NCBI GenBank assembly: GCA_964570935.1 | Contig: CAZMZP010000075.1 | Span: 19,173 to 83,172, forward strand | Direction of reading: 5' to 3' | Length of the DNA stretch: 64,000 nucleotides | Origin: an uncultured bacterium | GTDB taxonomy: Bacteria; Eisenbacteria; RBG-16-71-46; JAFGJU01 | Shown: piece by piece, positions 7,291 to 50,025 of the stretch | Position numbering within the stretch: position 1 is the stretch's first letter | How the letters are laid out: every line of letters starts with the position of its first letter | Notes under the pieces: model-generated | Told to the model about the DNA's origin: nothing | The model's database searches: none | The model's input: only the letters and a program-made list of their open reading frames with translations | Made by a program: the position numbers and the translations under genes

Positions 7291-8526
7291 ATGCCCGTTT
7301 CATCCAGGAACCGAGTCTTCTTCCTGCCGCTCGCCGTGTTTCTTCTTGCCATGATTCCCTTCCTCGTGTTTTCAGCCCGTGCAGACGGCCAGCCGCCGCC
7401 CGAGCAGGTCGGCGCGGTTGGCGTCGCGGAGGCGGCGCCTGATTCGGTCCTCCTCATGTTGACGCCAGTGGGGCACTTGACCGCTTCAGACACGCCCAGC
7501 GACGAGGGCGGGAGCATGACGGTCAAGTGGACCGAGCCCGAGAACGCCGCCCAGCTCGGCCTCACGTACAGAGTCATGAGAGCCGAGAGCCACCAGGGCC
7601 AGTACGCGGAGGTCTGCGAGCTTGCGGCGGGGGAGCACGAGTACGTGGACGCGGGACTCACTGACGGCAAGCAGTACTGCTACAAAGTGCTGTCGGTCGT
7701 GGGGCCCAGTGTCGCCGAGTCGGCGCCGACCTTGCCCGCCTTTCCCAGGGGCAACTGGTTCAGGATGTTCCGGCTCAACGCCCTGGTGCTTCTCATAATC
7801 TTCTCCAGCTCCGTCCTCTTCTACATCGCGCGAGCTCGCGGGGGCAAGCCCATCTACATCAGAAAGATCGCCGGCCTGAACGCCGTGGACGAGGCCGTGG
7901 GCAGGGCCACGGAAATGGGCAAGAAAATCCTCTACATCCCCGGCATCATGAGCATCGACGAAATACAGACCATCGCCAGTCTGGCCATCCTGGGACACGT
8001 CGCGAAGCTGAGCGCCCAGTACAACGCCGATTTGGAGGTCCCCAACAAGGACCCGCTCACGTTCGCGTCGGCCCGGGAAACCGTGAGGGAAGCGTATCTC
8101 GAGGCGGGAAGGCCCGACCTGTTCAGGGAAGAGATGGTCAACTACGTGACCTACGACCAGTTCGCGTACACGGCCTCGGTCACCGGCAAGATGGTGCGGG
8201 AGAAGCCGGCCACGAACTTCCTGATAGGCTCCTTCTACGCCGAGAGCCTTCTTCTGGCCGAGACCGGGCAGTCAGTGGGCGCGATTCAGATCTCCGGCAC
8301 GGCGGAGGTCGCGCAGCTCCCGTTCTTCGTGGTGGCGTGCGACTACACGCTCATCGGCGAGGAACTGTACGCGGCCAGCGCCTATCTATCCAGAGAGCCA
8401 GTCCTCCTGGGAAGCATAAAGGGACAGGACCTCACCAAGCTCCTCCTCATGCTTGCTCTTGGACTCGGCGTTATTCTTGAGTCTTTCGGTTTGGCTTTTG
8501 TTAAAGACGCCTTCAGGATGCAGTGA
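7291..8526 (+). CDS. Signal peptide + fibronectin-III + DUF6754-like membrane protein
   Basis: AAAGGAGG before ATG 7291; signal peptide ending ARA; FN3-like segment (TVKW...YRVMR...YVDAGL...YCYKV); TM; IRKIAGLNAVDEAVGRATEMGK; C-terminal TM. Family name from recall. Confidence 0.75.
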   Translation: MPVSSRNRVFFLPLAVFLLAMIPFLVFSARADGQPPPEQVGAVGVAEAAPDSVLLMLTPVGHLTASDTPSDEGGSMTVKWTEPENAAQLGLTYRVMRAESHQGQYAEVCELAAGEHEYVDAGLTDGKQYCYKVLSVVGPSVAESAPTLPAFPRGNWFRMFRLNALVLLIIFSSSVLFYIARARGGKPIYIRKIAGLNAVDEAVGRATEMGKKILYIPGIMSIDEIQTIASLAILGHVAKLSAQYNADLEVPNKDPLTFASARETVREAYLEAGRPDLFREEMVNYVTYDQFAYTASVTGKMVREKPATNFLIGSFYAESLLLAETGQSVGAIQISGTAEVAQLPFFVVACDYTLIGEELYAASAYLSREPVLLGSIKGQDLTKLLLMLALGLGVILESFGLAFVKDAFRMQ

Positions 8527-29253: not shown

Positions 29254-29748
29254 TCAGTCGAGGGTGCTTATCGTGAGGTCGGGCCGCTCGAGCAGTTGGA
29301 ATTCTATTCCGACTTCCCCGAGCAGAGTGAGGGCGTCCTCGTCGGGATAACTCCCGCAGGCCACCACTCTCTCTATCTTGGCGTTGGCGAGGATCTTCGC
29401 GCACAGTATGCAGGGGGTGTGGGTGCAGTAGAGTGTGCCCTTCTGGATGCTGATTCCGTGAAGTCCGGCCTGTATGACGGCGTTCTGCTCAGCGTGGATC
29501 GCCCTGCAGACCTCGTGGCGCTCGCCGGACGCTATTCCTTTCGCGTCCCGGAGGCACCCGAGCTCCAGGCAGTCCTTCACTCCGGACGGGGCCCCGTTGT
29601 AGCCGGTCGTGAGGAGACGCTTCTCCTTCACTATCACGGCGCCGACGTGGTGACGCGTGCACGTCGAGCGTTCGGCCACGAGGAAGGCGATCTTCATGAA
29701 ATACTCGTCCCACGGGATTCTCGGGTGCCGCTGCCGGGGGGCGTTCAT
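29254..29748 (-). CDS. dCMP deaminase (ComEB-like)
   Basis: WDEYFMKIA...RSTC, TGYNG, HAEQNA, PCILCAK. Confidence 0.9.
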   Translation of the reverse strand: MNAPRQRHPRIPWDEYFMKIAFLVAERSTCTRHHVGAVIVKEKRLLTTGYNGAPSGVKDCLELGCLRDAKGIASGERHEVCRAIHAEQNAVIQAGLHGISIQKGTLYCTHTPCILCAKILANAKIERVVACGSYPDEDALTLLGEVGIEFQLLERPDLTISTLD

Positions 29749-31010
29749 CAGACCTCCTTTAGCTCGAGCTCGTGCTCGGGAAGGCGTGCGACGTCCGCGT
29801 GTCTGAAGAAGAGGTAGTACAGACAGCTTGCCACCACGTACAGCACTATCGCAACAACAAAAGACGGGACGTAGGAGTGACGCTCGATGAGAATGCCGCC
29901 CCACTGAACGCTCACGGCCCACGACGCGGTCCAGGCCAGCATCAGCATGCTGTTCGTGACGGCGTGCTCCTCCTTCCTGACCGACTCCATTGCGAAGTGG
30001 GTCGACAGCGGCTGGTTCATGTTCATCAGGGCGCCCCTCATCAGGAACGCGAACACCACGACGGGGAAGGACCTCGAGAAACAAAGGGCGAGCATGAACG
30101 GGATCGACGCGAGCTGCGTGACGACCACGCTTCTCATCAGCCCGAGCCTCGGCACGAACAGCGGCCCCAGGAGGGTGCCGGCGGTCATGAAGCACTGCAG
30201 GAGCGCGAACAATATGCCTATGGTCTCGGCCGACGCCCCGAAGAGGTCCCTGAAATAGAGGTTGAGGAACGGGATGATGAGGCCCGCGCCTATGCCGATT
30301 ATGAAGGCGGGCACGCACAGCTTCGCGATCAGCTTCCAGTCGGTCTTTCGAAGGTTTGCCAGGAACTGCGAGTGGGCTCTGACGTCCGGCCTCTCCTCCA
30401 CGATGGACATGAACGGAAGGGCGGAGAGAGTCATGACGATGACGCCGGCCAGGAGGGAATACCTGAACTGCTCCCCCGGCGACTGGGTGAAGTAGGAAAA
30501 CGCCCTGGGCAGGAAGCCGCCTATCAGACTCCCGACGAGCGCGCCCGCGGTGCTGACGGCGAAGTTCATGCTGAAAAGGTAAGTTCGCTCCTTCTCGCTG
30601 CTGTGCCGCATGAAGAACGGCGCGGACGCCACCCTGAACACCGCTATTCCGATTCCGGCGATGAACCCGGCCACCACTATCGCGTCCCTGTTGCCGGTGA
30701 GCACTTGGAGAGCGTAGCCGACCGCCATCACCAGCGTCGCAAACGTGAGGGCGGACCTGAAGGTGAACCGCCCGAGCAGAAGGCCCAGCGGAAGCGCCAG
30801 GATTACCGGGGCGAGGGACGTTCGGGACAGCACCTTTCCGATGTAGGATTCGGAGAAGCCCAATTCCTTGAAGTACAGGTTGAGGAGGAGCGAGAACATG
30901 GACGCGCCGGTCCATATGAGGAGACTGCCCAGAAGGAACGCTCTCGCGTTGGGAGGAAAAAGTCTCAGATGGGCGACGTAATCCCTGGTTCCTGCAAGGA
31001 GCTTGTTCAG
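29748..31010 (-). CDS. MFS transporter (start uncertain, possibly CTG)
   Basis: About 12 TM segments; LNLYFKELG, PFLNLYF; stop overlaps the deaminase ATG. Confidence 0.85.
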   Translation of the reverse strand: MNKLLAGTRDYVAHLRLFPPNARAFLLGSLLIWTGASMFSLLLNLYFKELGFSESYIGKVLSRTSLAPVILALPLGLLLGRFTFRSALTFATLVMAVGYALQVLTGNRDAIVVAGFIAGIGIAVFRVASAPFFMRHSSEKERTYLFSMNFAVSTAGALVGSLIGGFLPRAFSYFTQSPGEQFRYSLLAGVIVMTLSALPFMSIVEERPDVRAHSQFLANLRKTDWKLIAKLCVPAFIIGIGAGLIIPFLNLYFRDLFGASAETIGILFALLQCFMTAGTLLGPLFVPRLGLMRSVVVTQLASIPFMLALCFSRSFPVVVFAFLMRGALMNMNQPLSTHFAMESVRKEEHAVTNSMLMLAWTASWAVSVQWGGILIERHSYVPSFVVAIVLYVVASCLYYLFFRHADVARLPEHELELKEV

Positions 31011-35531: not shown

Positions 35532-36173
35532 CTACTTGATGCCGTGGAGCCGCTTGTACTCCGGCCAATTCCTCTTTAACTCTATGAAATCAGGCAGGTT
35601 GGCCCGTAGGAGGAAGGGGTTGGTGAGTTTCTCTTCGCCCATGGTGGAGCGCGGCCGGACTCCGTAATCGTGGCCGGGCCAGACTTCGGTCGAATCGGGC
35701 AGGGGCATGAGCTTCCGGTGGAGGCTCTCGTACTCTCGTCGCGCGCCGTCTCCGAAGTCGGTGCCCCCGACCTTCCCGACGAACAGCGTGTCGCCGGTCA
35801 GCAGCTTCCCGTTGACCAGAACACAGATGGAGTCGAGTGTGTGCCCGGGGGTGTGGATGATGCCGGCGCGCAGCCGGCCGGCCTCGAGCTCTGTCCCGTC
35901 TTCCACCGCGATGTCGTGCGCGGCGTTCGAAGAACTGTGCGCCACGATGAGCGCGCCAGTTTCTCTCTTGACGGCGGCGTTGCCCGCGATGTGGTCGGCG
36001 TGCGAGTGTGTGTTTACGATGTACTTCACATTGACGCCGAGCGACCGCACCCGCGCGATGAGGTGGTCACAGTCGAAAGACGGGTCGACCACGAACCCGA
36101 CGCGCGCCTCTTCGTCGGCCGCAATGTAAGCGAAGTTCCTGTCGCCGCCGGAATCTATCTGCTCGAAGATCAC
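35532..36173 (-). CDS. MBL-fold hydrolase (glyoxalase II-like)
   Basis: THSHADH, HTPGHT, TGDTLF, PGHDY; GTGA overlap with PNP. Confidence 0.88.
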   Translation of the reverse strand: MIFEQIDSGGDRNFAYIAADEEARVGFVVDPSFDCDHLIARVRSLGVNVKYIVNTHSHADHIAGNAAVKRETGALIVAHSSSNAAHDIAVEDGTELEAGRLRAGIIHTPGHTLDSICVLVNGKLLTGDTLFVGKVGGTDFGDGARREYESLHRKLMPLPDSTEVWPGHDYGVRPRSTMGEEKLTNPFLLRANLPDFIELKRNWPEYKRLHGIK

Positions 36174-37009
36174 TTCTTTCCTATCTCCCTCACAAGTTCT
36201 TTGAAGAACGGGACCAGGCGCGTGACCGTCTTCCCGACGACCTCGGCCACTTCCTCGTGGCTCAGCTCGGCGTTTCCGATGCCTGTCGCCAGGTTAGATA
36301 TGCAGGAGAGCCCCAGCACGCGCAGACCCAGAGTGTTCGCAACGAGCACCTCGTGCGCCGTGGACATGCAAGCTGAATGAGCGCCGATCCTCCGCATGAA
36401 TTCGGATTCGGCTCCGGTCTCGTAGCTGGGTCCGGTAGAACTGCAGAGCACGCCCTGTTTCAGCGCGACGCCGTACCTTTCGGCCGCGCGCCTGGCCACG
36501 TCCATGTATACGCGGTCGTACAGAGCGGGGCATCTCCTTGCCAGGGGCTCCGTCTTCCAGCCGCACTCTCCCCTGAGTGGCTGGCGAAACGTCAGGTCTA
36601 TGTGGTCCTGCACGAGCATCACGTCGCCGGGTCCGATGTCGCGCGTGAACGAACCGCTGGCGTTGGTCACTATCAGGGAGTGAACCCCGAGCGCGGCCAG
36701 CACTCTGACCGGGAACGTGACGTCGGCCGGAGAATGACCCTCGTAAAGATGAACACGGCCCTGGAGTATGGCGACGTGAGTCTCCGCGAAGCGCCCCAGC
36801 ACGAGAAAGCCCTGGTGGCCGTGAACCGTGGGCGGCTTGAAGTGCGGGATGGTCGAATACGGGATGGCGCAGCCTCTGTCGACTTCGGCAACGAGCGGCC
36901 CGAAGCCGGACCCCAGGATGATTCCCAAGGAAGGGACAGCCGGGCATTCTCCACGGACCCGCCTCACCGCGTCTTTTACCATCTGGTCTCTTTCGTCCCA
37001 GTTCGTCAT
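36170..37009 (-). CDS. punA: Purine nucleoside phosphorylase (trimeric family)
   Basis: IILGSG, GRVHLYEGH, TNASG, GPSYET, MSTAHE, SNLATG. Confidence 0.9.
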   Translation of the reverse strand: MTNWDERDQMVKDAVRRVRGECPAVPSLGIILGSGFGPLVAEVDRGCAIPYSTIPHFKPPTVHGHQGFLVLGRFAETHVAILQGRVHLYEGHSPADVTFPVRVLAALGVHSLIVTNASGSFTRDIGPGDVMLVQDHIDLTFRQPLRGECGWKTEPLARRCPALYDRVYMDVARRAAERYGVALKQGVLCSSTGPSYETGAESEFMRRIGAHSACMSTAHEVLVANTLGLRVLGLSCISNLATGIGNAELSHEEVAEVVGKTVTRLVPFFKELVREIGKK

Positions 37010-37047
37010 CTGTTACCTTTCTTCGGCTGCGGCACGAGCGCCGCCGC

Positions 37048-37962
37048 TCACTGTCTTTCTTTCTGGTAAGGCACTCCGTCCGCCGCCGGCGGGACTGAGC
37101 GGCCTATGAAACCCGCCAGGACCGCGATCGTCGCGACGTACGGTATCATCTGGATGAATTGAGTCGGTACGTTTCCTCCCTGGAGCTGCATCTGGAGAGT
37201 CTCCGCGGCCCCGAAAAGGAGGCACGCGCCGGCCGCACCCAGAGGATTCCATTTTCCCACGATCATGGCGGCCAGCGCAATATAGCCCCTGCCGCTGGAC
37301 ATGCCGTCCGTGAAACTGTGCTGGTCCATCGCCAACCAGGCGCCTCCCAGGCCAGCCAGGGCTCCGCTGGCCAGCACCCCGGCGTACCGCATCGCGGTCA
37401 CGTTCACGCCCAGACTGTCCGCCGCCTCGGGGTGCTCGCCCACGGAGCGAAGCCTCAGCCCGAAAACGGTCTTGAAGAGCGTGAGCTGGCTCGCCGCCAC
37501 GACCACGACCGCCGCCAGGATCAGCGGCGAAGAGAATATCGTGGAGACGACCGGGATGTCCCGCAGCACGGGAATGGCCCACTCGGGCAGTCCCGCGATC
37601 CTGCCCGAATTGCTGGAGCTTCCGAAAATGACTTTCAGGAAGAAGCGCGTGGCGCCGGCGGCGAAGAGGTTGATGGCCAGCCCGCTCACTATCTGCTCCG
37701 CTTTGAGAGTAATCGTCACGACCGCGTGTATGAGGGCGGTCGCGACCCCGCCCGCCACCGCGGCCAGAATCCCCAGCCACGGGTTCCCGGTGTAGTGAGT
37801 GGCCAGCGCGCACGTGAACGCGCCGTTCAGGAGAATACCCTCCAGGGCGATGTTCACGACGCCGCCGCGTTCCGAAAACGTGCCGCCCACCGCGGCCAGC
37901 GTGTACGGCACGGATATCCTGATCGTCTGCGCCACGAACGTGAGGACTATCATCCAGTCCAT
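37048..37962 (-). CDS. Nucleoside-type ABC transporter permease (NupC/YufQ-like)
   Basis: SERGGVVNIALEG, GLRLRSVGEHP, GRGYIALAA. Confidence 0.9.
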   Translation of the reverse strand: MDWMIVLTFVAQTIRISVPYTLAAVGGTFSERGGVVNIALEGILLNGAFTCALATHYTGNPWLGILAAVAGGVATALIHAVVTITLKAEQIVSGLAINLFAAGATRFFLKVIFGSSSNSGRIAGLPEWAIPVLRDIPVVSTIFSSPLILAAVVVVAASQLTLFKTVFGLRLRSVGEHPEAADSLGVNVTAMRYAGVLASGALAGLGGAWLAMDQHSFTDGMSSGRGYIALAAMIVGKWNPLGAAGACLLFGAAETLQMQLQGGNVPTQFIQMIPYVATIAVLAGFIGRSVPPAADGVPYQKERQ

Positions 37963-37974
37963 CGCACCGGTTCC

Positions 37975-39096
37975 TTACCTGAGCGACCTCTTCTTCAACG
38001 ACACCGCAAGCGCGCCGAAGAGGTTGGTACCGACTATGACCGCGACAATGACTATCGCTTGGAGTATTTCCACCAGCTCCTTCGGCACGACGGAGTTTAT
38101 GACGAGCCCGCCGTAGCTCAGCGCCCCGAACAGCAGAGCCGCCAGCACCACGCCCAGCGGATGATTCCGGCCCAGCAGCGCGACCGCTATGCCCATGAAA
38201 CCTATTCCGGCCGAGAAGCCCTGTTCGTAGTAGTACTTGTAGCCCAGGACGAAGTCGACCCCCACCAGACCGGCCAGGGCTCCGCTGAGCGTCATTGCCG
38301 TCACGATCCCGGAGGCCACGCTCACTCCGCCGTACTCCGCCGCCCACGGGTTCAAACCCACGGCCCTCAGCTCGAAACCGTGCTTCGTCCTCCACAGGAA
38401 CAAGTACACGAGAACGGCCACCGCCAGGGCCAGGAACAGACTGACGTTCACGGGCGAACCCTTGAACGCCGGCCAGAACTGTTCGAGCCGCGGTATCTGC
38501 GCCTGCGGGGCTATCCTCGGGGTGTGAATCGTCTCCGGGACTATGTACACGTTCGTTACCATGTATCCGGTCAACGCGATGGCTATGAAGTTGAGCATGA
38601 TCGTGTTTATGACTTCGTGAGTGCCGAACCTGGCCTTGAGATACCCGGGTAAGGCTCCCCAGGCCGCGCCGCCCAGGGCGGCTGCCACGACGCAAAGCGG
38701 CACCAACGCCACACCAGGCAGCCCCGTCAGCGTGAACCCCACCCACGCCGTACAGAACGCGCCAACGTACAGCTGGCCCTCCGCGCCTATGTTGAAAAGG
38801 CCCGCTTTGAACGCCAGGGCCACCGCCAGTCCCGAGAAGATGAGGGGCGTGGCCTTAAAGAGGACCTGTCCGAACCCGTAGGAATCCCCGAACGTGCCCC
38901 TGGCTAGCCTGGCGTATACAAGGCCCGGGTCCTGTCCAATGGCGGCTATGAAAAGCGCGCCGACCCCAAAGGCGGCGGCAAGCGCGACCAACGGGACGCC
39001 CACGGCCCCCCCAAGGCTGAGGAGAAGACCCGTCCGGGTCCTTCCGGGTGCCCGGGTTTCGGGCGGCGCGTTCAAGTCAGTGAGATTGTGGTTCAT
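37975..39096 (-). CDS. Nucleoside-type ABC transporter permease (NupB/YufP-like)
   Basis: GLFNIGAEGQ, HEVINTIMLN, GFELRAVGLNP, GFMGIAVALLG. Confidence 0.9.
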   Translation of the reverse strand: MNHNLTDLNAPPETRAPGRTRTGLLLSLGGAVGVPLVALAAAFGVGALFIAAIGQDPGLVYARLARGTFGDSYGFGQVLFKATPLIFSGLAVALAFKAGLFNIGAEGQLYVGAFCTAWVGFTLTGLPGVALVPLCVVAAALGGAAWGALPGYLKARFGTHEVINTIMLNFIAIALTGYMVTNVYIVPETIHTPRIAPQAQIPRLEQFWPAFKGSPVNVSLFLALAVAVLVYLFLWRTKHGFELRAVGLNPWAAEYGGVSVASGIVTAMTLSGALAGLVGVDFVLGYKYYYEQGFSAGIGFMGIAVALLGRNHPLGVVLAALLFGALSYGGLVINSVVPKELVEILQAIVIVAVIVGTNLFGALAVSLKKRSLR

Positions 39097-39187
39097 TCGC
39101 TCACCGGTAGAAGTCAGCTTCGTGCCAAGGAGACTACGCCTGCGCGTGGCCGCGCTGCCGCCCCGCGTGAGCGGCCACCGCCGCGCA

Positions 39188-40747
39188 TCACGCAGTCGGC
39201 CGGCCGGCGCCGGTCATCAGGAGTCCCAGTTCCTTCTCGTCGGTCGCGGCCGCATCGACTGTGCTCACGACCCTGCCGCCGAACACGACGGCTATTCTGT
39301 CGCTCAGGCTCAGGATCTCGGACAGGTCCGCGGACACGAGCAGCACGGCCGTGCCGGCGTCTCTCTGCGAGACGAGACAGCGCCTGATGAACTCTATGGC
39401 CCCGATGTCCACGCCCCTGGTGGGCTGGGCCGCCACCAGCAGTACCGGCTTGCGGCCCAGCTCGCGGGCCACGACCAGCTTCTGCTGGTTGCCTCCGGAC
39501 AGCGCGCCGGCCCTCAGGAAGGGAGCCCGCGGCCTGACGTCGAACTCCCGGAGGGCCCACTCCGCGTTCGCCAGGACGGCGTTCGAGTCCAGAAACACCC
39601 GGCCGGCGTAAGGCGGCCTGAACTGAGAGCCCAGGATCAGGTTCTCACCCACGGTGAACTCCGTTATGAGCCCCCGCTTCAGACGGTCCTCCGGAATGTG
39701 CGCCACCCCGCGTTCGAGCATCTGTCTGGGAGACGAACCTGTGACGTCGTGGCCCCCGAGCAGGACTCTGCCGGAGGCCGGTTTCCTGAGCCCGGCGATC
39801 ACCTCCACGAGCTCCGTCTGGCCGTTCCCCTCGACTCCAGCCACTCCCAGGATCTCGCCGGCGTGGACGCTCAAGGAAAGGCCCTTCAGTCTGGGCACCC
39901 TGCCTGCGCCCAGCGCGTGAACGTCTATGAGCTCCAGCACCGCTCCGCCCGGCGCGGCAGGACCCTTGTCCACGTCGAACAAGACTCTTCTTCCCACCAT
40001 CATCATGGCCAGCTCCGCGGGCGACGAGTCCCGCGTGTCGACCATGCCCACGACCCTGCCGTGGCGCATAACGGTCACTCTGTCGGAGATCTCCATGACT
40101 TCGTTCAGCTTGTGCGTGATGAAGACGATGGTCTTTCCCTGCTCCCTCATCTTCCGCAGTATGATGAAGAGGGCGTCGGTCTCCTGGGGCGTGAGAACGG
40201 CCGTGGGTTCGTCAAGTATGAGGAGCTCCGCGCCCCTGAAGAGTATTTTCAGTATCTCTACGCGCTGCTGCGCTCCCACGGACAGTTTCTCGACCTGCGC
40301 CAGCGGGTCCACGGACAACGCGAACAGCCGGGAAAGTTCGTCTATTCTCCGGGACGCGGACTTGAGATCCAGGAACACGCCGGACCGCGAAGGCTCGGAG
40401 CCGAGGACGACGTTCTCGGCCACCGACAACTGCGGGATCAGCATGAAATGCTGGTGCACCATCCCGACGCCAAGCGAAATCGCGTCCGCCGGGGTCCTGA
40501 TATCGGTCCTCATCCCGTCGAAGGAAATGCGGCCGGAATCGGGCCTGTACAACCCGTACAGTATGCGCATGAGAGTGGACTTGCCCGCGCCGTTTTCACC
40601 CACCAGCGCGTGGATCTCGCCCTTCCGCACGTCGAGGCTCACGCAGTCGTTGGCCTTGACGAGGGCGAAGCGCTTGGATATGCCCTCCATTTGAAGGAAG
40701 GTCGGGGAACGGGGCGAAGCGGGGGTGTCACGTGGAGGGAACAACAA
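39188..40747 (-). CDS. Two-domain ABC ATPase (NupA/YufO-like)
   Basis: GENGAGKST, LDEPTA, LSGGNQQK, QPTRGVD; exact start uncertain. Confidence 0.92.
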   Translation of the reverse strand: MLFPPRDTPASPRSPTFLQMEGISKRFALVKANDCVSLDVRKGEIHALVGENGAGKSTLMRILYGLYRPDSGRISFDGMRTDIRTPADAISLGVGMVHQHFMLIPQLSVAENVVLGSEPSRSGVFLDLKSASRRIDELSRLFALSVDPLAQVEKLSVGAQQRVEILKILFRGAELLILDEPTAVLTPQETDALFIILRKMREQGKTIVFITHKLNEVMEISDRVTVMRHGRVVGMVDTRDSSPAELAMMMVGRRVLFDVDKGPAAPGGAVLELIDVHALGAGRVPRLKGLSLSVHAGEILGVAGVEGNGQTELVEVIAGLRKPASGRVLLGGHDVTGSSPRQMLERGVAHIPEDRLKRGLITEFTVGENLILGSQFRPPYAGRVFLDSNAVLANAEWALREFDVRPRAPFLRAGALSGGNQQKLVVARELGRKPVLLVAAQPTRGVDIGAIEFIRRCLVSQRDAGTAVLLVSADLSEILSLSDRIAVVFGGRVVSTVDAAATDEKELGLLMTGAGRPTA

Positions 40748-41804
40748 TCTCTCCGGAAACTATTTTTTGCTTGAGCGTCTCGACCCTGGCGCGTATGTCT
40801 TCGCCGATCAGTGCCTTGTTGTTGTCGTCGTACACGTAGCTGATCCCGCCCTCCTTGAGACCGAGCGCCCTCACCCCGCCCTCGAACGTGTTGTTCATCG
40901 CGGACTTTATGGTCTCCAGGACCGCGACGTCCACGTCCTTGATCATGCTCGTGAGGATGTAGCCCGGCGCCTCGGCGTACTGGTCGGAATCCACGCCTAT
41001 GGCCAGCTTGCCTTTTTCCCTGGCCGCCTCGAAGACGCCCAGACCCGTCGAGCCGGATGCGTGAAATATCACGTCCGCGCCCTTGGAGTACTGCGTCAGC
41101 GCCAGCTCTTTACCCTTGCTGGGGTTCTTGAACGCGTTGTCCGTGACGCCGGCGTAAGACACGAACACTTTCACGTCGGGCCGGACGTACGTCGCGCCGG
41201 CGATGTAGCCCGCCTCGAACTTCTTGATGAGGGGGATCTTCATGCCACCCACGAAACCTATCTTGCCCGTCTTGCTCTTCAGCGCCGCCACGGCGCCCAC
41301 CAGGAAGGAGCCCTCTTCCTCTCTGAACTTGAGAGCGACCAGGTTGGCCGGGATGCTGTCGGCGTCCGTGACCGTGTAATCCACGCACGCGAACTTCTTG
41401 TCTGGAAACTCCTTCGCGGTCTGCGTTATGTCGTCGGTGAACAGGAAGCCGATTCCGAAGATGACCCGCGCGTCTCCGTTGGCCATCAGACGGAGCGCGG
41501 AGGCCCTGTCGCTTCCTTCGCCCGGCTCGATGTACTCGAAGTCCACTCCCAGCTCTTCCTTGGACCTCACGAGTCCCCTGTAGGCGGAGTCGTTGAAAGA
41601 CTTGTCGCCCCTGCCGCCGACGTCGAACACCAGCCCGACCTTGAAAGCTGCGTTCGCGGCGCCCGAGTCCGTCTCGTCCGTCCCGCTCTTTTCCTTCTTC
41701 GCGCAGGACAATGCGCAGACCGTCAGAAAAAGCGCAAGGCAGAGCATCGCTGTCACGAAGAAACCGGCTGAGTGCTTTCGGCGCGCGGCGTGAAGCGTTC
41801 TCAT
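40728..41804 (-). CDS. BMP-family nucleoside-binding lipoprotein (PnrA/TmpC-like)
   Basis: GGAGG RBS; lipobox ALSC; GDKSFNDSA, GADVIFHASG, AIGVDSDQ. Confidence 0.9.
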   Translation of the reverse strand: MRTLHAARRKHSAGFFVTAMLCLALFLTVCALSCAKKEKSGTDETDSGAANAAFKVGLVFDVGGRGDKSFNDSAYRGLVRSKEELGVDFEYIEPGEGSDRASALRLMANGDARVIFGIGFLFTDDITQTAKEFPDKKFACVDYTVTDADSIPANLVALKFREEEGSFLVGAVAALKSKTGKIGFVGGMKIPLIKKFEAGYIAGATYVRPDVKVFVSYAGVTDNAFKNPSKGKELALTQYSKGADVIFHASGSTGLGVFEAAREKGKLAIGVDSDQYAEAPGYILTSMIKDVDVAVLETIKSAMNNTFEGGVRALGLKEGGISYVYDDNNKALIGEDIRARVETLKQKIVSGEIVVPST

Positions 41805-41842
41805 GAAGTCTGATTCCTCCAACTGGGTCGTTTCCGGCGCGG

Positions 41843-42526
41843 TCATTTCCGGCCGGACCTTCCGGCGCCTGGCTTCCCGGTCCCGGGTTTCCTGCCGGCG
41901 GGCTTCTTCGGGACTGTATTCTTTCCGCCGGACTTCTTCGCGTCGGACGGGGCCGGCCGTTCTTTCCCGGGCGGCTCGAAGCAGTGACGGCACCTGGCCT
42001 CGTACAGGTCGGCGGCGCCGACCACTATTCTCTCCTTGCTCGGGACCTTGCGTTGGGTCCTGTTCGCCGGGTTGCCGCAGACAACGCAGATGGCCAGCGT
42101 CTTGGTGATGTACTCCGCCACGGCCAGCAGCTGCGGCATGGGCTCGAAGGGCTTTCCGGTGTAGTCCTGGTCCAGCCCCGCCACTATCACTCTCTTGCCG
42201 CTGTCGGCCAGCTTCTGGCACACGCCTATGAGGTCGGCGCCGAAGAACTGCGCCTCGTCGATTCCGACGGCGTCCGCGTCCATGGCCCTCTTGAGTATTT
42301 CGCCGCAGTCGGAAACCTCCTGCGAGGGTATCCGCTGGAGATTGTGGGATACGATGTGGTCGCTGCCGTATCTCCGGTCTATCCGCGGCTTGAAAATGGA
42401 GACTTTCTGCCTGGCGATCTGCGCCCTCCTCAGCCTCCTGATGAGCTCCTCGGTCTTCCCGCTGAACATGCTTCCACAGATGACCTCGATCCAGCCGGTG
42501 TTCTTCTGCGGGATGTTCTCAGTCAT
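41843..42526 (-). CDS. tdk: Thymidine kinase
   Basis: [37 protein letters not shown]; basic tail. Confidence 0.95.
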
Positions 42527-42594
42527 TTTGCACCTTCCTCACGCGTCTCGCGAGAACGCGCCGGCGGCCGGCGCGGCAAGTCTCGACGCGACGC

Positions 42595-43209
42595 TCACAG
42601 CAGCGAGCGGATCTTGGTCTTTAAGAGATCGATGGCGACTACGTTATGTCCGCCCTGCGGGATTATGATGTCGGCGTATCTCTTGGACGGCTCCACGAAC
42701 TGCAGGTGCATCGGACGCACGCTGCTCTCGTACTGCTCGATTATGGACTCGATACCGCGGCCCCTCTCCCTCAAGTCCCGCTTGAGCCTCCTGATGAACC
42801 TCTCGTCCGCGTCCGTGTCTATGAACACCTTTATGTCCATCAGGGTCCGCAGTTCGACGTCGTCCAGGATGAGGATGCCCTCCAGCACGATGACGAGATG
42901 CGCCCCGATCCTCCTGGTCTCCCCGCTCCTGCGATGCTGGGTGAAATCGTAGATCGGCTGTTCGATCTGCCGGCCGTGGATGAGCTTCAGGATGTGCTCC
43001 CTGAGGAGGGGCATGTCGAACGCGTCGGGATGGTCGAAGTTCTGCCTGCAGCGCTCCTCGTACGGCAGGTGGCACATGTCGTTGTAGTAGGAGTCCTGCT
43101 TGATTATGACGACCTTGTCCGACCCCAGCTCGGAGTAGATGGTGTCGGCCACGAGGGTCTTGCCCGAACCCGACCCGCCCGCTATCCCGATGACGATGGC
43201 CTTGCTCAT
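42595..43209 (-). CDS. udk: Uridine kinase
   Basis: GGSGSGKT, NFDHPDAFD, EGIL, RDLRERGR, FVEPSKRYADIIIP. Confidence 0.95.
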   Translation of the reverse strand: MSKAIVIGIAGGSGSGKTLVADTIYSELGSDKVVIIKQDSYYNDMCHLPYEERCRQNFDHPDAFDMPLLREHILKLIHGRQIEQPIYDFTQHRRSGETRRIGAHLVIVLEGILILDDVELRTLMDIKVFIDTDADERFIRRLKRDLRERGRGIESIIEQYESSVRPMHLQFVEPSKRYADIIIPQGGHNVVAIDLLKTKIRSLL

Positions 43210-43221
43210 TCCTTCGACCTT

Positions 43222-43524
43222 TCAGTCACGCGGCCCCGGCCTGGCGCCGTCCGTCTCCGGCAGGTCCACGCTGTCGACGACGCCAACGATGACGGTTCTG
43301 ACGGGTCCCCTCTGCATCTTGAGGATCTGGGACGCGGCGTTTCCCTCGTCCGACACCAGCACCATGTCCCCGCCGCCGGCGCCCACGCTGTCCACTGCGA
43401 TCACGGGTTTGCCGCTGGGGGAGAGGGACAAGTCTAGCGGGCGGACCAGGAGGAGCTTCTTTCCGCGGAGGTCTCTATGCTTTACTGTGGCGGCTATCTT
43501 CCCCACAACTCGTGCAAGGAACAT
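43222..43524 (-). CDS. EutN/CcmL family microcompartment vertex (BMC-P) protein
   Basis: MFLARVVGKIAATVKH, KLLLV, AVDSVGAGGGD.VL, VIVGVVD. Confidence 0.9.
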   Translation of the reverse strand: MFLARVVGKIAATVKHRDLRGKKLLLVRPLDLSLSPSGKPVIAVDSVGAGGGDMVLVSDEGNAASQILKMQRGPVRTVIVGVVDSVDLPETDGARPGPRD

Positions 43525-44182
43525 TTTCACAACCTGCCAGCGTGCCGGACATCTCGCAATCGTGTGACTTGACGAGCCCCACGATCTCGTCGATCTTGTG
43601 CGCGTGCTCGATGAAATTCACGGTGTCGGTGTCGACCTCGTGGACTCGCGTCATCCTGCGCGCCCTCCCAAGCCATTCTTCGTAAGCGTCGTCGAGCGTT
43701 TTCAGATAGTCGAGCGTTATTGACTTCTCACTCTCCCGGCCCCTGTGCTTTATCCTGTCCATCAGGCTCACGGGTTCGGCGCGCAGGTAGATTATGAGGT
43801 CGGGCGGCCTGATGAACTCGAGCATCGTGTCGAACAGCGCCTTGTAGTTGGCGTAGTCTCTGTCGCACATGTGGCCGAGGCGGTTGAGCGTTCTGGCGAA
43901 GACTTCGGCGTCCTCGTAGATGGTCCTGTCCTGGATGAAGGAGACGCCGGATTCCAGCATCTTCTTCTGGGCCTGGAATCTCTTCGAAAGGAAGAAGATC
44001 TGGAGATGGAAGCTCCATCTGTTCATGTCCTTGTAGAAATCGTCCAGGTAGGGGTTGTCGATCACGGGCTCGTAATACGCCTGCCAGCCGGTCCGCCTGT
44101 TAAGCTCTCTCGTCAGGCAAGTCTTTCCGGCTCCGATGTTGCCGGCGATCCCGAGAAAAAAGCTCTTGTGTTCCACGGCCAT
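43475..44182 (-). CDS. Deoxynucleoside kinase (dCK/dGK family)
   Basis: GNIGAGKT, EPVIDNPYL, QIFFLSKR, DRTIYED, RGRESE. Confidence 0.92.
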   Translation of the reverse strand: MAVEHKSFFLGIAGNIGAGKTCLTRELNRRTGWQAYYEPVIDNPYLDDFYKDMNRWSFHLQIFFLSKRFQAQKKMLESGVSFIQDRTIYEDAEVFARTLNRLGHMCDRDYANYKALFDTMLEFIRPPDLIIYLRAEPVSLMDRIKHRGRESEKSITLDYLKTLDDAYEEWLGRARRMTRVHEVDTDTVNFIEHAHKIDEIVGLVKSHDCEMSGTLAGCENVPCTSCGEDSRHSKA

Positions 44183-44187
44183 GGTCC

Positions 44188-44757
44188 TCAGGGCACTCCG
44201 ATCTCCGACTCTTCCAGAGTGGCCACGTAGGGGAGGTTTCTGTACTTCTGGGCCAGGTCAAGCCCGTACCCGATGACGAACTTGTTCGGAATCACAAAAC
44301 CCACGTAATCAATCGCTATGTCGACCTCCCTCCTTTCGCGCTTGTCAAGAAGCGCGCATATCCTGAGCGAACGCGGGAGCCTGGCGAGGAGCATTCTCTT
44401 TATGTAGGACAGGGTAAGGCCGCTGTCCACGATGTCCTCTATGATGATGACGTCCTCGTTGCTGATGTCTCTCTCCAGGTCTTTGAGCAGCCGCACGACG
44501 CCGGAGCTCCTGGTGAGGTTGTTGTAGCTCGACACGGACATGAAGTCGATTTCGGGGTTGATGGTGAGATGCCTAACCAGGTCGGACAGAAACAGAAAAC
44601 TGCCTCTCAGGATTCCTATGAGGATGGGGGATTGACCGGGGTAGTCGCGGGAGATCTCGAGGCCAAGCTCCTTCACGCGTTTCTGTATTTGTTCTTCTGT
44701 GAGCAGGACTTCCATTGATTGCCCCGGGACCGCCGCCTGTCGCAGAGTGGATCGCAT
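44188..44757 (-). CDS. hpt: Hypoxanthine phosphoribosyltransferase
   Basis: GILRGSFLF, IIEDIVDSGLTL, FVIGYGLD, YRNLP; start could be 44757 or 44715. Confidence 0.93.
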   Translation of the reverse strand: MRSTLRQAAVPGQSMEVLLTEEQIQKRVKELGLEISRDYPGQSPILIGILRGSFLFLSDLVRHLTINPEIDFMSVSSYNNLTRSSGVVRLLKDLERDISNEDVIIIEDIVDSGLTLSYIKRMLLARLPRSLRICALLDKRERREVDIAIDYVGFVIPNKFVIGYGLDLAQKYRNLPYVATLEESEIGVP

Positions 44758-44783
44758 TACTTTGTTCCGCAACAGTGGATCGC

Positions 44784-45013: not shown

Positions 45014-46375
45014 TTGGACGCAACTCTGTTGACGGGCGGCACCGTCATAACCATGAACGCTTCCAGGGAAGTGTTGCGGGCCGACGTGATGATAGAGGGC
45101 GGCGTCATCACCGCCGTCGGGCAGAACCCGGGTGGTTGGGCGCGGCGCGCTGCCGGACATTCCTGGCTTCGGACGCTGGACGTCGGCGGCAGCTACGTCC
45201 TTCCCGGCTTCATCCAGACTCACGTGCATCTTTGTCAGACGCTGTTCAGGGGCCAGGCCGAGGGAGTCGGACTCGCCGGCTGGCTGGACAGGATATGGAC
45301 TCTCGAAGCCGCTCACGACCCCGAGTCCATGCGCGCCTCCGCCGCGCTGGGCTGTAACGAGCTGTTGAAGGGCGGAACCACGTGCGTCCTCGACATGGGA
45401 AGCGTTCACCACACCGACCAGGTGTTCGAGGCCGCACGGGCGAGCGGCATAAGGGCCTTCTGCGGCAAGGCCATGATGGACGCCGGTGACCACGTGCCTC
45501 CCGGGCTCAGAGAGACCACCGACGAATCCATGTCTGAGGCGCTGCGGCTTCACGGGAGGTGGCACGGCGCCGACGGCGGCAGAATTCAGTACGCGTTCGC
45601 GCCGCGGTTCCTGGAAAGCTGCAGCGAAGACCTGCTGCGCGGGGTGGCCGCGAGCGCTCGCGAGATGGTCCTCCTCGTGCATTCTCACGCCTCCGAGACC
45701 GCCGCCGAGCTGGAGGACTGTAAGTCCCGGCACGGCGTGAGCCCCGTCAAATACCTCGAATCACTCGGGCTGGCCGGTCCGAACCTCGTGCTGGCCCACT
45801 GCATACATCTGGAGGACGACGACTTCAGAATCCTGGCCGAGACCGGTACGAAGGTGGCTCACTGCCCGTCCTGCAACCTCAAGCTTTCCTCCGGGATAGC
45901 GGACGTCGACCGTCTCGCGCGGTCCGGCGCGGCAGTGTCGCTGGGCAGCGACGGCGCCGCCTGCAACAACAACCTCGACATGTTCCAGGAGATGAGGACT
46001 GCCGCGCTCCTGCAGAGCTACAAGAATGGAGGCGGGCACCCGTGGGCAGGGCTGTTCCTGGAGGCGGCGACCCTGGGAGGGGCGAAGGCGCTGGGCATAG
46101 ACGGCATAGTGGGCAGCATCGAACCGGGGAAGAAGGCCGACCTGATTGTGGTAAACGTCTCGGGAGAGCACGCGCTCTGCGGCCCCGGCTGCGACCCCGC
46201 CACGAGGATCGTATTCTCGGCAAAGAGCTCCGACGTGAAGCACGTCTTCGTAGGCGGCCGCCCGATTGTCGCGGCCGGCGAGATCTGGCAGGGTCCGTAC
46301 GCGGGTCCGTCCTCGCGCGAAGTGACGGTCAACGCTTCGAGGGCGCTCGAGAAGCTGCTCGCGCGCTGCGCCTGA
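45014..46375 (+). CDS. Amidohydrolase, MTA/SAH/5'-deoxyadenosine deaminase family
   Basis: AGGAGG before TTG 45014; HVHLCQTLFRG, HSHASE, AHC, HCPSCNLKL, LGSDG. Confidence 0.85.
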   Translation: MDATLLTGGTVITMNASREVLRADVMIEGGVITAVGQNPGGWARRAAGHSWLRTLDVGGSYVLPGFIQTHVHLCQTLFRGQAEGVGLAGWLDRIWTLEAAHDPESMRASAALGCNELLKGGTTCVLDMGSVHHTDQVFEAARASGIRAFCGKAMMDAGDHVPPGLRETTDESMSEALRLHGRWHGADGGRIQYAFAPRFLESCSEDLLRGVAASAREMVLLVHSHASETAAELEDCKSRHGVSPVKYLESLGLAGPNLVLAHCIHLEDDDFRILAETGTKVAHCPSCNLKLSSGIADVDRLARSGAAVSLGSDGAACNNNLDMFQEMRTAALLQSYKNGGGHPWAGLFLEAATLGGAKALGIDGIVGSIEPGKKADLIVVNVSGEHALCGPGCDPATRIVFSAKSSDVKHVFVGGRPIVAAGEIWQGPYAGPSSREVTVNASRALEKLLARCA

Positions 46376-46401
46376 AACTGGCGACGGCATGAGGTGAAGG
46401 C

Positions 46402-46989
46402 ATGGAACGTCAGAAGATCACTCCGGAGAGAATAAGGAAAGTAGTGCGTGAAGTCCTCGAGGAGACGACCCGCGAAGGCCCCGTGGGCGCGACTCGCGTC
46501 CCGGCAGGTGCGCCTGCCGGTCCCAAGGCAAAGGCGCCTGGCGCCGTTGCGCTGGCCGTGGGCGCCGACCACGGCGGATTTGCCTTCAAGGAGCTCTTGA
46601 GGAAATACCTCGAGCAGGAACTGGGGATTGTGGTCAAGGACTGCGGCACTCACGGGCCGGAGTCGGTCGACTATCCCGACTTCGCCCTTGCCGTGGCCAG
46701 GGCCGTGGCGTCGGGCGAATGTGAGAAGGGCATCGTCGTAGACACCATGGGGATCGGGTCCTCCATAGCCGCCAACAAGGTCAAAGGAATCCGTGCCGCG
46801 CTCTGCCACGACGTGGACACCGCAAGGAACAGCCGGGCGCACAACGACGCCAACGTGCTGGCCTTGGGCTCCAAGGTGGTCAACTCCGGTCACGCCCGGC
46901 GGATAGTCAGGGAATGGCTGGCCACTGCTTTTGAGGGCGGCAGGCACGCCAAGAGAGTTCAGAAGATAACAGACGCCGAACGCGCGTGA
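46402..46989 (+). CDS. rpiB: Ribose-5-phosphate isomerase B-like protein with N-terminal extension
   Basis: GADHGG, DYPDFA, GIG..IAANKVKGIRAA, HNDANVL, FEGGRHAKRV. Confidence 0.9.
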   Translation: MERQKITPERIRKVVREVLEETTREGPVGATRVPAGAPAGPKAKAPGAVALAVGADHGGFAFKELLRKYLEQELGIVVKDCGTHGPESVDYPDFALAVARAVASGECEKGIVVDTMGIGSSIAANKVKGIRAALCHDVDTARNSRAHNDANVLALGSKVVNSGHARRIVREWLATAFEGGRHAKRVQKITDAERA

Positions 46990-47002: not shown

Positions 47003-47032
47003 TTGACGCAAACCGCGCCGTTTTGATACGGT
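47003..47032 (+). promoter_or_regulatory. Putative sigma70 promoter of the TBDR locus
   Basis: TTGACG-18 nt-TACGGT with extended TG. Confidence 0.4.
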
Positions 47033-47109
47033 TGATGCGCTCTAGTTCTGTCCGCGGCCGGACTGCCGCGCTTTCCTCTCCTATCCGAACGGAGGATGCG
47101 AAAAGAATC

Positions 47110-50025
47110 ATGACGAAAGTGACAGGCTATCCAAAGTCGTCGTCGGCTAAACACGCCGGGCCGGGGCCATGCCTCCGGCTCTTACTGTTGCTGTTCATCC
47201 CCGTCTTTCTCCTGCTGCCCGCCTCGGACGCCTACTCCCAGGGGGTTGGCCGAGTCCTGGGCAAGGTGCTGGACGCCGCGACCGGGAAACCACTGCCTTT
47301 CGCCAACATAGTCATACTGGAGACCCAATTCGGTGCCGTGTCCGCCGAGGACGGTGAGTACATAATCGTCGGGATTCCGCCGGGCGTGTATTCGGTCCGG
47401 GCCAGTCTCATCGGTTACACCGGCGTGGTCAGGAAGGACGTCAGGGTCACGGCGGACCAGGCCGCGAGAGCCAACTTCGAGCTCCAGCAGGTGGCCGTCG
47501 GCGGCAGGGACGAGGTCGTCATCTGGTCCACCAGGCCGATGGTCGAAGTGGACGTGGCTTCGACGAAGAGGAACATCTCGGCCGAAGAGCTCAGAGTCCT
47601 GCCCGTTGGCGAGACCGTACAGGACGTGATGGCGAGGCAGGCGGGTATCGTAAGCTCCAAGGACGAGCTCCACGTCAGGGGCGGCAGGACCGACGAAGTC
47701 ATCTACATAATAGACGGAGTGAAGATGAAAGACGCCCTCTCGGGCGGCTCCAGCGGCGACCTCATCGGCGCCCGGTCGGTGGCGGAGATGAGCGTCATCA
47801 CGGGCGGGTTCAGCGCCAAGTACGGCCAGGCCCTTTCCGGCGTCGTGGACGTGAAGGTGAGGGAGGGCGGCTCCGCGTACCGCGGAGGCATCACATATTC
47901 GACGGACCGTACTCCGCTGTTCAGCTATTACAACTATGACTATGTCGACTTCCAGCTCAGCGGTCCGGAACCACTGACAACGTACTTGCTGCCCAAGCTC
48001 AAGGCCAAGATCCCCGGGGAAGTCACGTTCTTCATGAACCTGTCCGGCGACGTCTCAGACACCTATCTTCCGGACTTGAACGACATGGCCGCGAGAAAGG
48101 ACCAGGTCACCGTCATAGAGGCGGGTGGGTTCCGCATCCCTCTGTACACCGGCGGAGACAAACCACGTCTGGTGTCCAGCTACAGGGACAAGATACTGGG
48201 CCGCGAGTTCACGTATGGTTCTTTCTTCAGCCCCAGGAGCGACAACAACTGGAGGGCCATCGGGAAGCTGGTCTGGAAGCCCAACGCGGCGCACAAGTTC
48301 GGCGTGTCAGCGACGAAATGGATAGGGATAGGACAGGGGTTCGCCGAGCACGACATCGGTGAGGTCGCCAAGAACATCACCAGCTACCCGTGGTCATGGA
48401 CCAACCGGCTCGACCATTACTACACAATCACCAGCGACCAGAACAGCTTCTCGGCTTTCTGGCGGCAGAACATCAGCAAGTCCTCGTACCACAACTTGCA
48501 GGTATCCAGGTATTTCAGCGCCTCGCACCGTGACGTGGCGGGGAAGAAGTGGAGCGGGTATGAGCAGCCCGACGACAGCGCGCTTCCCGACAGTCTCGAC
48601 TCCATCTACTTTATTGACAGCGGCGACGTCGCGGACTGGAGGGACAGGTACATAGAGACGTGGGGCCTCGCGTGGGACCTCACCAAGCGGTTCGAGCCCC
48701 ACCACGAGTTCATCACCGGGTTCGACAGCCAGTACGAAAACGTGCAGTACATCAGCATATCAAGACCCTGGGAGTACGACACGGACGGACTGGGGCGTGA
48801 GCACGACCTCTTCCACGTCTACCCCAACAAGGGCTCCCTGTACGCCGAAGACAAGCTCGAGTACGAGGGTTTCATTGCCAAGATAGGCGTCCGTTACGAC
48901 TACTGGTTCCCGGGTGAGGCCCTGGAGAGAGTGATTGACGACACCACCAACACGAACATCACGTCTTTCACGAGGGCCAACTTCTACCACGACACGAAAG
49001 AGGTCTTCGGTCATCGCTTCAAGGCTCACATGAGTCCGCGCCTGGCGATCTCCCATCCCGTCACGGAGAGAGACAACCTGTTCTTCAACTACGGGCACTT
49101 CACCCAGTGGCCGACGTACTACTACATCTACTCAAAGATCACGTCGGTGTCGAGCGAGAGCTATCCCAGGATAGGCAACCCCAACCTGAACCCGGAGATC
49201 GCAGTCCAGTACGAGCTGGGCGCAAGACACCAGTTCACTAACGACATGGCAGGCGACGTCACGCTGTTCTACAAGGACATCTACGACTACCCGACGGCCA
49301 CGCCGTTCACGCTGCAGGCGGGCATCGACCCGTCCACTGGGCAGCCCCTGCTGACCACGTTCTTCATTTACAGAAACGTCGACTACGCCAGGTCCAGGGG
49401 CGTGGAGCTGGAGTTCAAGAAGAGGAGAACCAACAACGTCTCGTTCGGCCTGTCGTACACCTATTCGCTGGCGACCGGCAAGAGCTCCGACCCCAACGCG
49501 GCCAAGCTGGTCCAGGAGGCCGGCGGCGACTTCAGCGAAGCCAACCTGGGCGAGGTCTACATGTGGTGGAACAGACCTCACAAGCTTACTTCCTGGCTGG
49601 AGTACCGGGTGCCGATAGACGCCCCTCCGGCGGAGTGGGGCAGGCTGAAGATCCCGCCCGGATGGTCCATCTACTTCTACTGGTACATCACGAGCGGGGA
49701 AGCATACACGCCCAGAGACTCGGAGGGCAGGGAGAGCGGTGAGGACTACTCCCGGAACGGACCGCTGGAGAGCCAGCTCAGCATGAAACTGACCAAGGTG
49801 TTTAAGCTGCGTAACGACAAGAGGCTCGAGGTCGTGTTCCAGGGCTGGAACATCCTGAACAGAAAGAACCCCATGGAAGTGGACCCACAGACCGGCGAAC
49901 CATACGAGCCGGGCGCGGGAACGATGATAAGGAACAACACGCTGTACTACCGCACGCAGTACAGCAACCCTGCGTACTTCGGCGTGCCCAGGAACTTCAG
50001 GCTGGCCGTCTCCTACGAGTGGTAG
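47110..50025 (+). CDS. TonB-dependent receptor with N-terminal carboxypeptidase-regulatory-like domain
   Basis: Signal peptide; GKVLDAATGKPLPFAN; plug HVRGGRTDE...IDG; GNPNLNPE; PRNFRLAVSYEW. Confidence 0.9.
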   Translation: MTKVTGYPKSSSAKHAGPGPCLRLLLLLFIPVFLLLPASDAYSQGVGRVLGKVLDAATGKPLPFANIVILETQFGAVSAEDGEYIIVGIPPGVYSVRASLIGYTGVVRKDVRVTADQAARANFELQQVAVGGRDEVVIWSTRPMVEVDVASTKRNISAEELRVLPVGETVQDVMARQAGIVSSKDELHVRGGRTDEVIYIIDGVKMKDALSGGSSGDLIGARSVAEMSVITGGFSAKYGQALSGVVDVKVREGGSAYRGGITYSTDRTPLFSYYNYDYVDFQLSGPEPLTTYLLPKLKAKIPGEVTFFMNLSGDVSDTYLPDLNDMAARKDQVTVIEAGGFRIPLYTGGDKPRLVSSYRDKILGREFTYGSFFSPRSDNNWRAIGKLVWKPNAAHKFGVSATKWIGIGQGFAEHDIGEVAKNITSYPWSWTNRLDHYYTITSDQNSFSAFWRQNISKSSYHNLQVSRYFSASHRDVAGKKWSGYEQPDDSALPDSLDSIYFIDSGDVADWRDRYIETWGLAWDLTKRFEPHHEFITGFDSQYENVQYISISRPWEYDTDGLGREHDLFHVYPNKGSLYAEDKLEYEGFIAKIGVRYDYWFPGEALERVIDDTTNTNITSFTRANFYHDTKEVFGHRFKAHMSPRLAISHPVTERDNLFFNYGHFTQWPTYYYIYSKITSVSSESYPRIGNPNLNPEIAVQYELGARHQFTNDMAGDVTLFYKDIYDYPTATPFTLQAGIDPSTGQPLLTTFFIYRNVDYARSRGVELEFKKRRTNNVSFGLSYTYSLATGKSSDPNAAKLVQEAGGDFSEANLGEVYMWWNRPHKLTSWLEYRVPIDAPPAEWGRLKIPPGWSIYFYWYITSGEAYTPRDSEGRESGEDYSRNGPLESQLSMKLTKVFKLRNDKRLEVVFQGWNILNRKNPMEVDPQTGEPYEPGAGTMIRNNTLYYRTQYSNPAYFGVPRNFRLAVSYEW

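Follow-up and report, generated by a model that had tools for sequence, protein, structure and literature searches.

Genomic context of the RPI gene

The gene referred to here as RPI (46402..46989, plus strand) is predicted to encode a protein of the RpiB family with an encapsulation peptide (EP), comprising 195 aa plus stop, of the type found in sugar-phosphate-utilising (SPU) bacterial microcompartments. It lies in a 64-kb window, the whole stretch of DNA that was analysed, on contig C75 of an assembly of 2.48 Mb in 105 contigs which is 94% complete. A Shine-Dalgarno-like GAGGTGA was read off the sequence at 46391..46397 (plus strand), its GAGG core being located 7 nt from the ATG at 46402. 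Furthermore, the alignment with database homologs showed that these start at an identical M-E-x-x-K-I-T-P-E-R-I. Since close homologs share the same start, the N-terminal extension of RPI is regarded as translated and not as the product of an over-extended open reading frame.

RPI is preceded, at a distance of 26 nt, by a gene putatively encoding an amidohydrolase (45053..46375, plus strand; PF01979, E 1e-75) which is nearest to the 5'-deoxyadenosine deaminase / MTA-SAH deaminase group. Its start is uncertain, the listed open reading frame beginning at the GTG at 44900 and the homology at about M52. The best model was that of the 5'-deoxyadenosine deaminase (NF005557), with a score of 507.6 bits that is below the cut-off of 522. 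A comparison of the N-termini revealed no EP on the amidohydrolase, which begins directly at its domain. The pair of amidohydrolase and RPI was detected in all four other genomes of the family and in no other family examined.

On the opposite strand, a divergent operon for nucleoside uptake and salvage (36170..44772, minus strand) was found in the same order as in a complete relative genome (L012) and in another MAG (L013). It consists of hpt (44188-44772), dNK (43475-44182), a BMC-P gene, udk (42595-43209), tdk (41843-42526) and the genes for a Bmp lipoprotein, an ABC ATPase (39188-40747), two permeases and PNP (36170-37009). The spacer between hpt and the amidohydrolase gene contains generic promoter-like hexamers only, and an Rfam scan of the whole window gave nothing at gathering scores. 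The BMC-P gene (43222..43530, minus strand; PF03319, E 1.3e-25), predicted to encode a microcompartment (BMC) vertex protein of the EutN/CcmL type, occupies a satellite position. It overlaps dNK by 56 nt (43475-43530, minus strand), and an overlap of 50 nt is likewise called in the complete relative (L012:6875-7153 versus 7104-7805), which suggests that translation of the vertex protein is tightly coupled to that of the nucleoside kinases.

Further upstream of the nucleoside cluster the minus strand encodes a 553-aa protein (29254-30915) with a cytidine/deoxycytidylate deaminase domain at its C-terminal end (residues 402-519), while its approximately 400 N-terminal residues have no Pfam match. 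It is followed by two open reading frames lacking Pfam matches and by a T9SS-sorted protein.

Downstream of RPI a TonB-dependent receptor is encoded (47023..50025, plus strand, start uncertain). Such receptors (CarboxypepD_reg and Plug domains) were found at most 1.5 kb after RPI or the RPI-DERA pair in many genomes of the class (L040, L050, L055, L059 and others), DERA being the deoxyribose-5-phosphate aldolase. In the window, up to 56000, the genes after the receptor code for an outer-membrane channel-like protein, a protein with NHL repeats and secreted proteins of large size. A surface capture module for substrates derived from nucleic acids may be encoded in this region.

The N-terminal extension and the RpiB fold

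The structure of RPI was predicted with AlphaFold2 from a 33-sequence alignment, resulting in a mean pLDDT of 88. The model comprises an N-terminal helix at residues 8-23 (PERIRKVVREVLEETT; 46423..46470, plus strand; pLDDT block of 80-90), a disordered linker at residues 24-49 (REGPVGATRVPAGAPAGPKAKAPGAV; 46471..46548, plus strand; pLDDT from below 50 to 58) that is rich in Pro, Ala and Gly, and a fold of the RpiB/LacA/LacB type at residues 50-194 (46549..46983, plus strand), for which the pLDDT was 86-98 per 10-residue block and mostly above 94. The assignment of the fold agrees with Pfam PF02502 (residues 52-189, E 2.8e-55) and with matches to RpiB structures of Escherichia coli (1NN4, 2VVR) and Clostridium thermocellum (3HE8) at E values of 1e-34 to 2e-44.

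Within the segment of residues 6-22 (ITPERIRKVVREVLEET) the hydrophobic positions I11, V14, V15, V18 and L19 are spaced i, i+3, i+4, i+7 and i+8. The hydrophobic moment amounts to 0.62 for residues 8-23, with a maximum of 0.84 over a stretch of 11 residues. The observed value was reached by 2.5% of shuffled sequences of the same composition. The helix is kept in the homologs, and gaps in the alignment reveal a highly variable length of the linker between them. The sequence-only reading of this DNA, which had proposed an amphipathic helix and a Pro/Ala/Gly linker ahead of an RpiB fold, is thereby borne out on each of these points.

Active site

In ungapped alignments with 1NN4, 2VVR and 3HE8 the codons GAC ACC ATG (46741..46749, plus strand) encode Asp114-Thr115-Met116 in the place of Cys66-Gly67-Thr68 of the E. 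coli RpiB. The substitution of Asp for Cys that had been noticed in the sequence, where the canonical loop CGTGIG reads DTMGIG, was thus located by these alignments: the GAC at 46741-46743 encodes Asp114 opposite Cys66. A second active-site change beside that of Cys66 concerns Thr68, which is replaced by Met116. In the E. coli enzyme Cys66 acts as the catalytic base and Thr68 as the proton shuttle, and the roles of the other pocket residues follow from the RpiB literature. A study of SPU microcompartments (PMC11585597) likewise names Cys66 and His99, and furthermore cites the RpiB of Mycobacterium tuberculosis as working with a carboxylate base, Glu75.

The position of Glu75 is occupied by S120 in RPI. 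Hence, the combination that characterises a canonical RpiB, namely Cys66 (or the actinobacterial Glu75) as base together with Thr68/Ser71, is replaced by D114, M116 and S120. The remaining pocket, in contrast, is retained, since D56, H57, H147, N148, R181, H182 and R185 of RPI correspond to Asp9, His10, His99, Asn100, Arg133, His134 and Arg137 of E. coli. These seven residues are invariant among RPI homologs of 45-60% overall identity.

RPI reaches 163.7 bits with the equivalog model TIGR01120 ('rpiB'), above its cut-off of 138.65, and would therefore be read as a normal RpiB on the basis of the score; public records accordingly label its homologs 'ribose 5-phosphate isomerase B'. This name is probably a functional misnomer in the case of RPI, which, because it has neither the Cys66 base nor the Thr68 proton shuttle, should not be filed as the ribose-5-phosphate (R5P) isomerase of the cell.

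Besides RPI the genome encodes two RpiB paralogs, one with the loop CYSGIG (Cys at the position of Cys66) and one with the loop GGSGNGE of the Glu75 type known from M. tuberculosis. Both are able to cover the isomerisation of R5P, so that this housekeeping reaction is independent of RPI, and it is on them rather than on RPI that reconstructions of the pentose phosphate pathway in these genomes should be based. The Cys-type paralog (contig C104, L009:1459 to the contig end) shares one open frame with serine hydroxymethyltransferase (GlyA). An apparent fusion of this kind was found in two genomes of the class, the second being L062 in G006.

Microcompartment shell and predicted cargo proteins

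A metabolosome locus was detected on contig C5. It contains, in this order, the genes predicted to encode PTAC (PduL), two BMC-H proteins, a BMC-P protein, an aldehyde dehydrogenase (AldDH), a PduS/RnfC-like flavoprotein, a BMC-T protein and a second BMC-P protein. The BMC-P gene of the window (43222-43530) is the third of the genome and completes a BMC-P triplet as it has been described for SPU and related BMCs, so that the genome encodes the shell of an aldehyde dehydrogenase metabolosome with a BMC-P triplet. As the sequence-only reading presupposed, the genome does contain BMC shell genes, with two BMC-H, one BMC-T and two BMC-P genes on C5.

Amphipathic helices resembling EPs were identified on the AldDH (DRISALVDSVLNRL) and the PTAC (LSQITTAVLARVRERL) of the same genome and on the DERA of a genome of the same genus (EELVERITKEVLLRL). 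Because these three proteins carry similar helices, the helix of RPI is considered to belong to a set of like cargo peptides. Together with the shell genes on C5 this speaks for the earlier proposal that RPI is a cargo enzyme of a BMC.

The only class II aldolase of the genome (PF00596, 280 aa; contig C10, L066:1207-2049, minus strand) is encoded between a glutamine synthetase and an NAD(P)HX repair enzyme, distant from all shell genes. Its C-terminal extension comprises the motif CETCGYCG, a linker rich in P, A and G, and an amphipathic helix (EKRLSDIITAVINEITQEG); judging from the sequence, this looks like a C-terminal EP. In PMC11585597, EPs at the C-terminus are mentioned solely for the class II aldolases of SPU5.

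The signature aldolase

Profile search, protein searches and tblastn detected neither DERA (PF01791) nor DeoA or DeoB in the 94%-complete assembly. However, contig C51 terminates (position 1, L070) part-way through a gene whose counterpart in a relative (G004) directly precedes deoB-DERA-deoA, and a full-length EP-bearing DERA with 75-100% identity to the query is encoded in each of the four remaining family genomes, including one of the same genus. Due to these two findings the absence of DERA is attributed to a break in the assembly and not to biology; a genuine loss, which would have left a SPU-like BMC without its signature enzyme, was rejected as the best reading on the same grounds.

Past the end of C51 the assembly lacks 12 kb or more of the syntenic region. 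In the public sequencing runs with the best match, a fraction of 0.25-0.28 of the sampled words was shared, and these runs yielded short contigs at 3-5x depth from related strains. They include contigs approximately 85% identical to the DERA locus of the same genus at similar depth, which are fragmentary and not assignable to the organism of the window.

RPI homologs in related genomes

Orthology of RPI was examined in 40 related genomes. It was found that 28 of these contain a total of 29 homologs with Asp at the position of Cys66, most of them with an EP-like helix. All 30 database homologs that were aligned likewise combine the Asp with the helix and a linker of variable length. Since this combination is common to the Asp-type homologs of the related genomes and to the database homologs, it is not a matter of chance.

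DERA adjoins 15 of the 29 Asp-type RPIs, which have the Asp at the position of Cys66 and the retained His99 in common with the orthologous RPI of the window (D114, H147). One of the homologs (L056, G029:C192) is a natural RPI-DERA fusion whose two domains are separated by an EP-like helix (VSDEDLERIAHQVQQLL), an arrangement also reported from SPU3 loci. The loop DTMGIG(SS) occurs in all five genomes of the family of the window, compared with D[AGSH]AG[IV]G(S) in the other 24 Asp-type homologs. In a tree of the RPI domain the clade of this family was recovered (90/38 support); the deep branches are unresolved with long paralog branches inside, and no clean clade of the Asp type or SPU type separates from the Cys and Glu paralogs.

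While the Asp-type RPI adjoins DERA in other families of the class, it follows the amidohydrolase in the family of the window. The usual placement of a SPU RPI, in the BMC locus and beside DERA, does not apply here, as the gene is located on another contig than the shell genes and adjoins neither these nor DERA. In the complete relative a DERA with an EP-like N-terminus is encoded in a deoB-DERA-deoA operon distant from both the shell locus and RPI. The SPU system is thus distributed over at least four loci, namely shell and core, RPI with the satellite BMC-P, deoB-DERA-deoA, and the class II aldolase. Callers that depend on BMC loci would under-describe such a system, since its cargo is recognisable by EPs only.

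Comparison with known systems

According to Sutter et al. (2021), SPU loci combine a pfam01791 aldolase with an RpiB-type protein of pfam02502 (PMC8217296). The exchange of Cys66 for Asp and a typical N-terminal EP were subsequently described for all RPIs of SPU microcompartments (Commun Biol 2024; PMC11585597). In the same study the purified RPI of Chloroflexi bacterium GWB2_54_36 showed negligible R5P isomerase activity, R5P being the sole substrate assayed, and bound the signature aldolase DERA in a complex of approximately 1:1 stoichiometry. The altered specificity that had been suspected for the gene of the window is in agreement with the behaviour of this ortholog.

Taken together, the RPI gene very probably encodes an EP-bearing cargo protein of the SPU type. 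With respect to the EP and the Cys-to-Asp exchange this is a correct but ordinary find, as both are already published for the whole family of SPU RPIs. RPI resembles these proteins in its RpiB fold, the exchange of Cys66 for Asp with retention of His99, and the N-terminal EP helix with an unstructured and poorly conserved linker. Its genome likewise encodes AldDH, PTAC, a PduS-like protein and a BMC-P triplet, and orthologs of RPI in the class are located beside DERA or fused to it. It differs in that its gene is located outside the shell locus and not beside DERA but after a deaminase-like amidohydrolase, in a nucleoside salvage neighbourhood which holds a satellite BMC-P. Further differences concern the linker of about 26 aa, compared with about 75 reported for the RPIs of SPU BMCs, and the loop, which reads D-T-M instead of D-[AG]-A. 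The name of the Eisenbacteria lineage is absent from the main text of both SPU BMC papers (PMC11585597, PMC8217296). What is particular to the Eisenbacteria family of the window is the scattering of the SPU system over several loci and the separation of RPI from DERA, and the residual interest of the gene lies in this scattered, EP-defined organisation and in the function of SPU RPIs.

With the RpiB/AlsB of E. coli (1NN4, 2VVR) and the RpiB of C. thermocellum (3HE8), RPI shares the fold and the equivalents of the seven retained pocket residues, but it differs from both by the exchange of Cys66 for Asp and of Thr68 for Met and by its N-terminal extension of 49 residues. The EPs of PduP, PduD and EutC are comparable in consisting of an N-terminal helix of about 16 residues, with hydrophobic residues at i, i+3/4 and i+7/8, on a flexible linker, whereas the cargo and the type of BMC are different. 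The EP of RPI presumably resembles these peptides in sequence as well.

LacA, the subunit A of galactose-6-phosphate isomerase, is likewise an RpiB-family protein in which Asp takes the place of the catalytic Cys (PMC11585597). Unlike RPI, it functions together with LacB in a heteromer, the Cys being contributed by the LacB subunit. RPI scored 110.8 bits with the LacA model NF006380, far below the cut-off of 164, and a LacB-like gene is not among the three RpiB-family genes of the genome (loops DTMGIG, CYSGIG and GGSGNGE). An identity as LacA was therefore rejected.

Proposed role of RPI

By analogy with the characterised systems, the N-terminal helix of RPI on its flexible linker is presumed to act as an encapsulation peptide. 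It would co-aggregate RPI with the EP-bearing AldDH, PTAC and DERA, in this organism possibly also with the class II aldolase, and would dock the protein to the shell that is encoded on the other contig. In the lumen RPI may bind the SPU deoxyribose-5-phosphate aldolase as its Chloroflexi ortholog does. Deoxyribose 5-phosphate would there be split into glyceraldehyde 3-phosphate and acetaldehyde, the latter being converted to acetyl-CoA and acetyl phosphate. We infer that RPI itself has kept the ability to bind a sugar phosphate other than R5P, which it probably also isomerises by using Asp as the base.

Such a retained ligand-binding or catalytic role on another substrate than R5P is the reading that we favour, and we consider its chances to be about even. 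It is favoured since both the Asp and the pocket are invariant at 45-60% identity, which would be unexpected of a mere adaptor, and since in this family RPI has parted from DERA and become linked with a deaminase. The invariant pocket and the uncoupling from DERA are a mild argument for a real role of this kind, and make the proteins of this family a natural test system.

The strongest competitor is a non-catalytic adaptor, an idea raised by the authors of the Chloroflexi study (PMC11585597) for SPU RPIs in general, according to which a dead RpiB domain serves as an EP-bearing scaffold that recruits and organises DERA in the core of the microcompartment. The negligible activity of the ortholog and its stoichiometric complex with DERA (PMC11585597) point in this direction, as do the replacement of both Cys66 and Thr68 and the known RPI-DERA fusions (L056 and the SPU3 loci). 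However, a dead pocket would be expected to drift, yet Asp114 is present in 29 of 29 homologs and the other pocket residues are invariant; moreover, the gene is located apart from DERA in an operon with a deaminase in the family of the window, and the lack of activity refers to R5P as the only substrate assayed in PMC11585597. A pure scaffold thus appears possible but less probable than a retained role. Proteins with comparable tasks are the inactive EP-bearing copies of AldDH in some GRM loci and CcmM in carboxysomes.

In this family the RPI that is separated from DERA might be a working isomerase whose substrate, different from R5P, is a sugar phosphate stemming from nucleosides, for instance a 5-deoxypentose phosphate supplied via the deaminase and PNP, with the product passed on to the EP-tagged aldolase. 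We regard this as speculative and improbable, but if true, the microcompartment would handle more than deoxyribose 5-phosphate. Its most explicit form, an isomerase of 5-deoxypentose or other nucleoside-derived sugar phosphates which, together with the deaminase, PNP and the EP-tagged aldolase, brings about a release of acetaldehyde inside the microcompartment similar to that of the DHAP shunt, is slightly more doubtful still. It would account for the operonic amidohydrolase nearest to the 5'-deoxyadenosine deaminase model, the PNP gene in the divergent operon, the class II aldolase with its C-terminal EP-like helix and the family-specific DTM loop, which differs from the D[AG]A of the DERA-adjacent RPIs. 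However, the amidohydrolase remains below the cut-off of that model (507.6 versus 522) and could act on any purine or nucleoside, and the aldolase is encoded elsewhere beside glutamine synthetase. To our knowledge, moreover, the known isomerases of 5-deoxyribose and MTR-1-P belong to the MtnA family and not to RpiB.

Finally, it seems very unlikely that RPI is an ordinary cytosolic ribose-5-phosphate isomerase B with an irrelevant or mis-called extension and Asp as the base in place of Cys: the equivalog score, the public names of the homologs and the functional carboxylate base of the M. tuberculosis enzyme (PMC11585597) would fit, but the extension and the start codon are kept across the homologs and the Shine-Dalgarno-like sequence suits the ATG at 46402, two other paralogs of the Cys66 and the Glu75 type are available, the ortholog has no R5P activity (PMC11585597) and the Asp type occurs in association with DERA and with genomes containing BMCs.

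Cysteine motifs adjacent to EP-like helices

Three of the predicted cargo proteins, PTAC, DERA and the class II aldolase, share a CxxCxxC(xxC) motif that adjoins the EP-like helix; it is absent from RPI. The main text of PMC11585597 does not contain the terms 'CxxC', 'iron-sulfur' or 'zinc', and 'cysteine' refers there to other matters. The motif reads AACQECGYCPG at the N-terminus of PTAC (L008:13916-14647), CVVCVGCGEC or CLTCIACGEC at the N-termini of DERA (L015:1279-2142 and L063) and CETCGYCG at the C-terminus of the aldolase (L066:1207-2049), and may represent a metal or Fe-S site tied to encapsulation.
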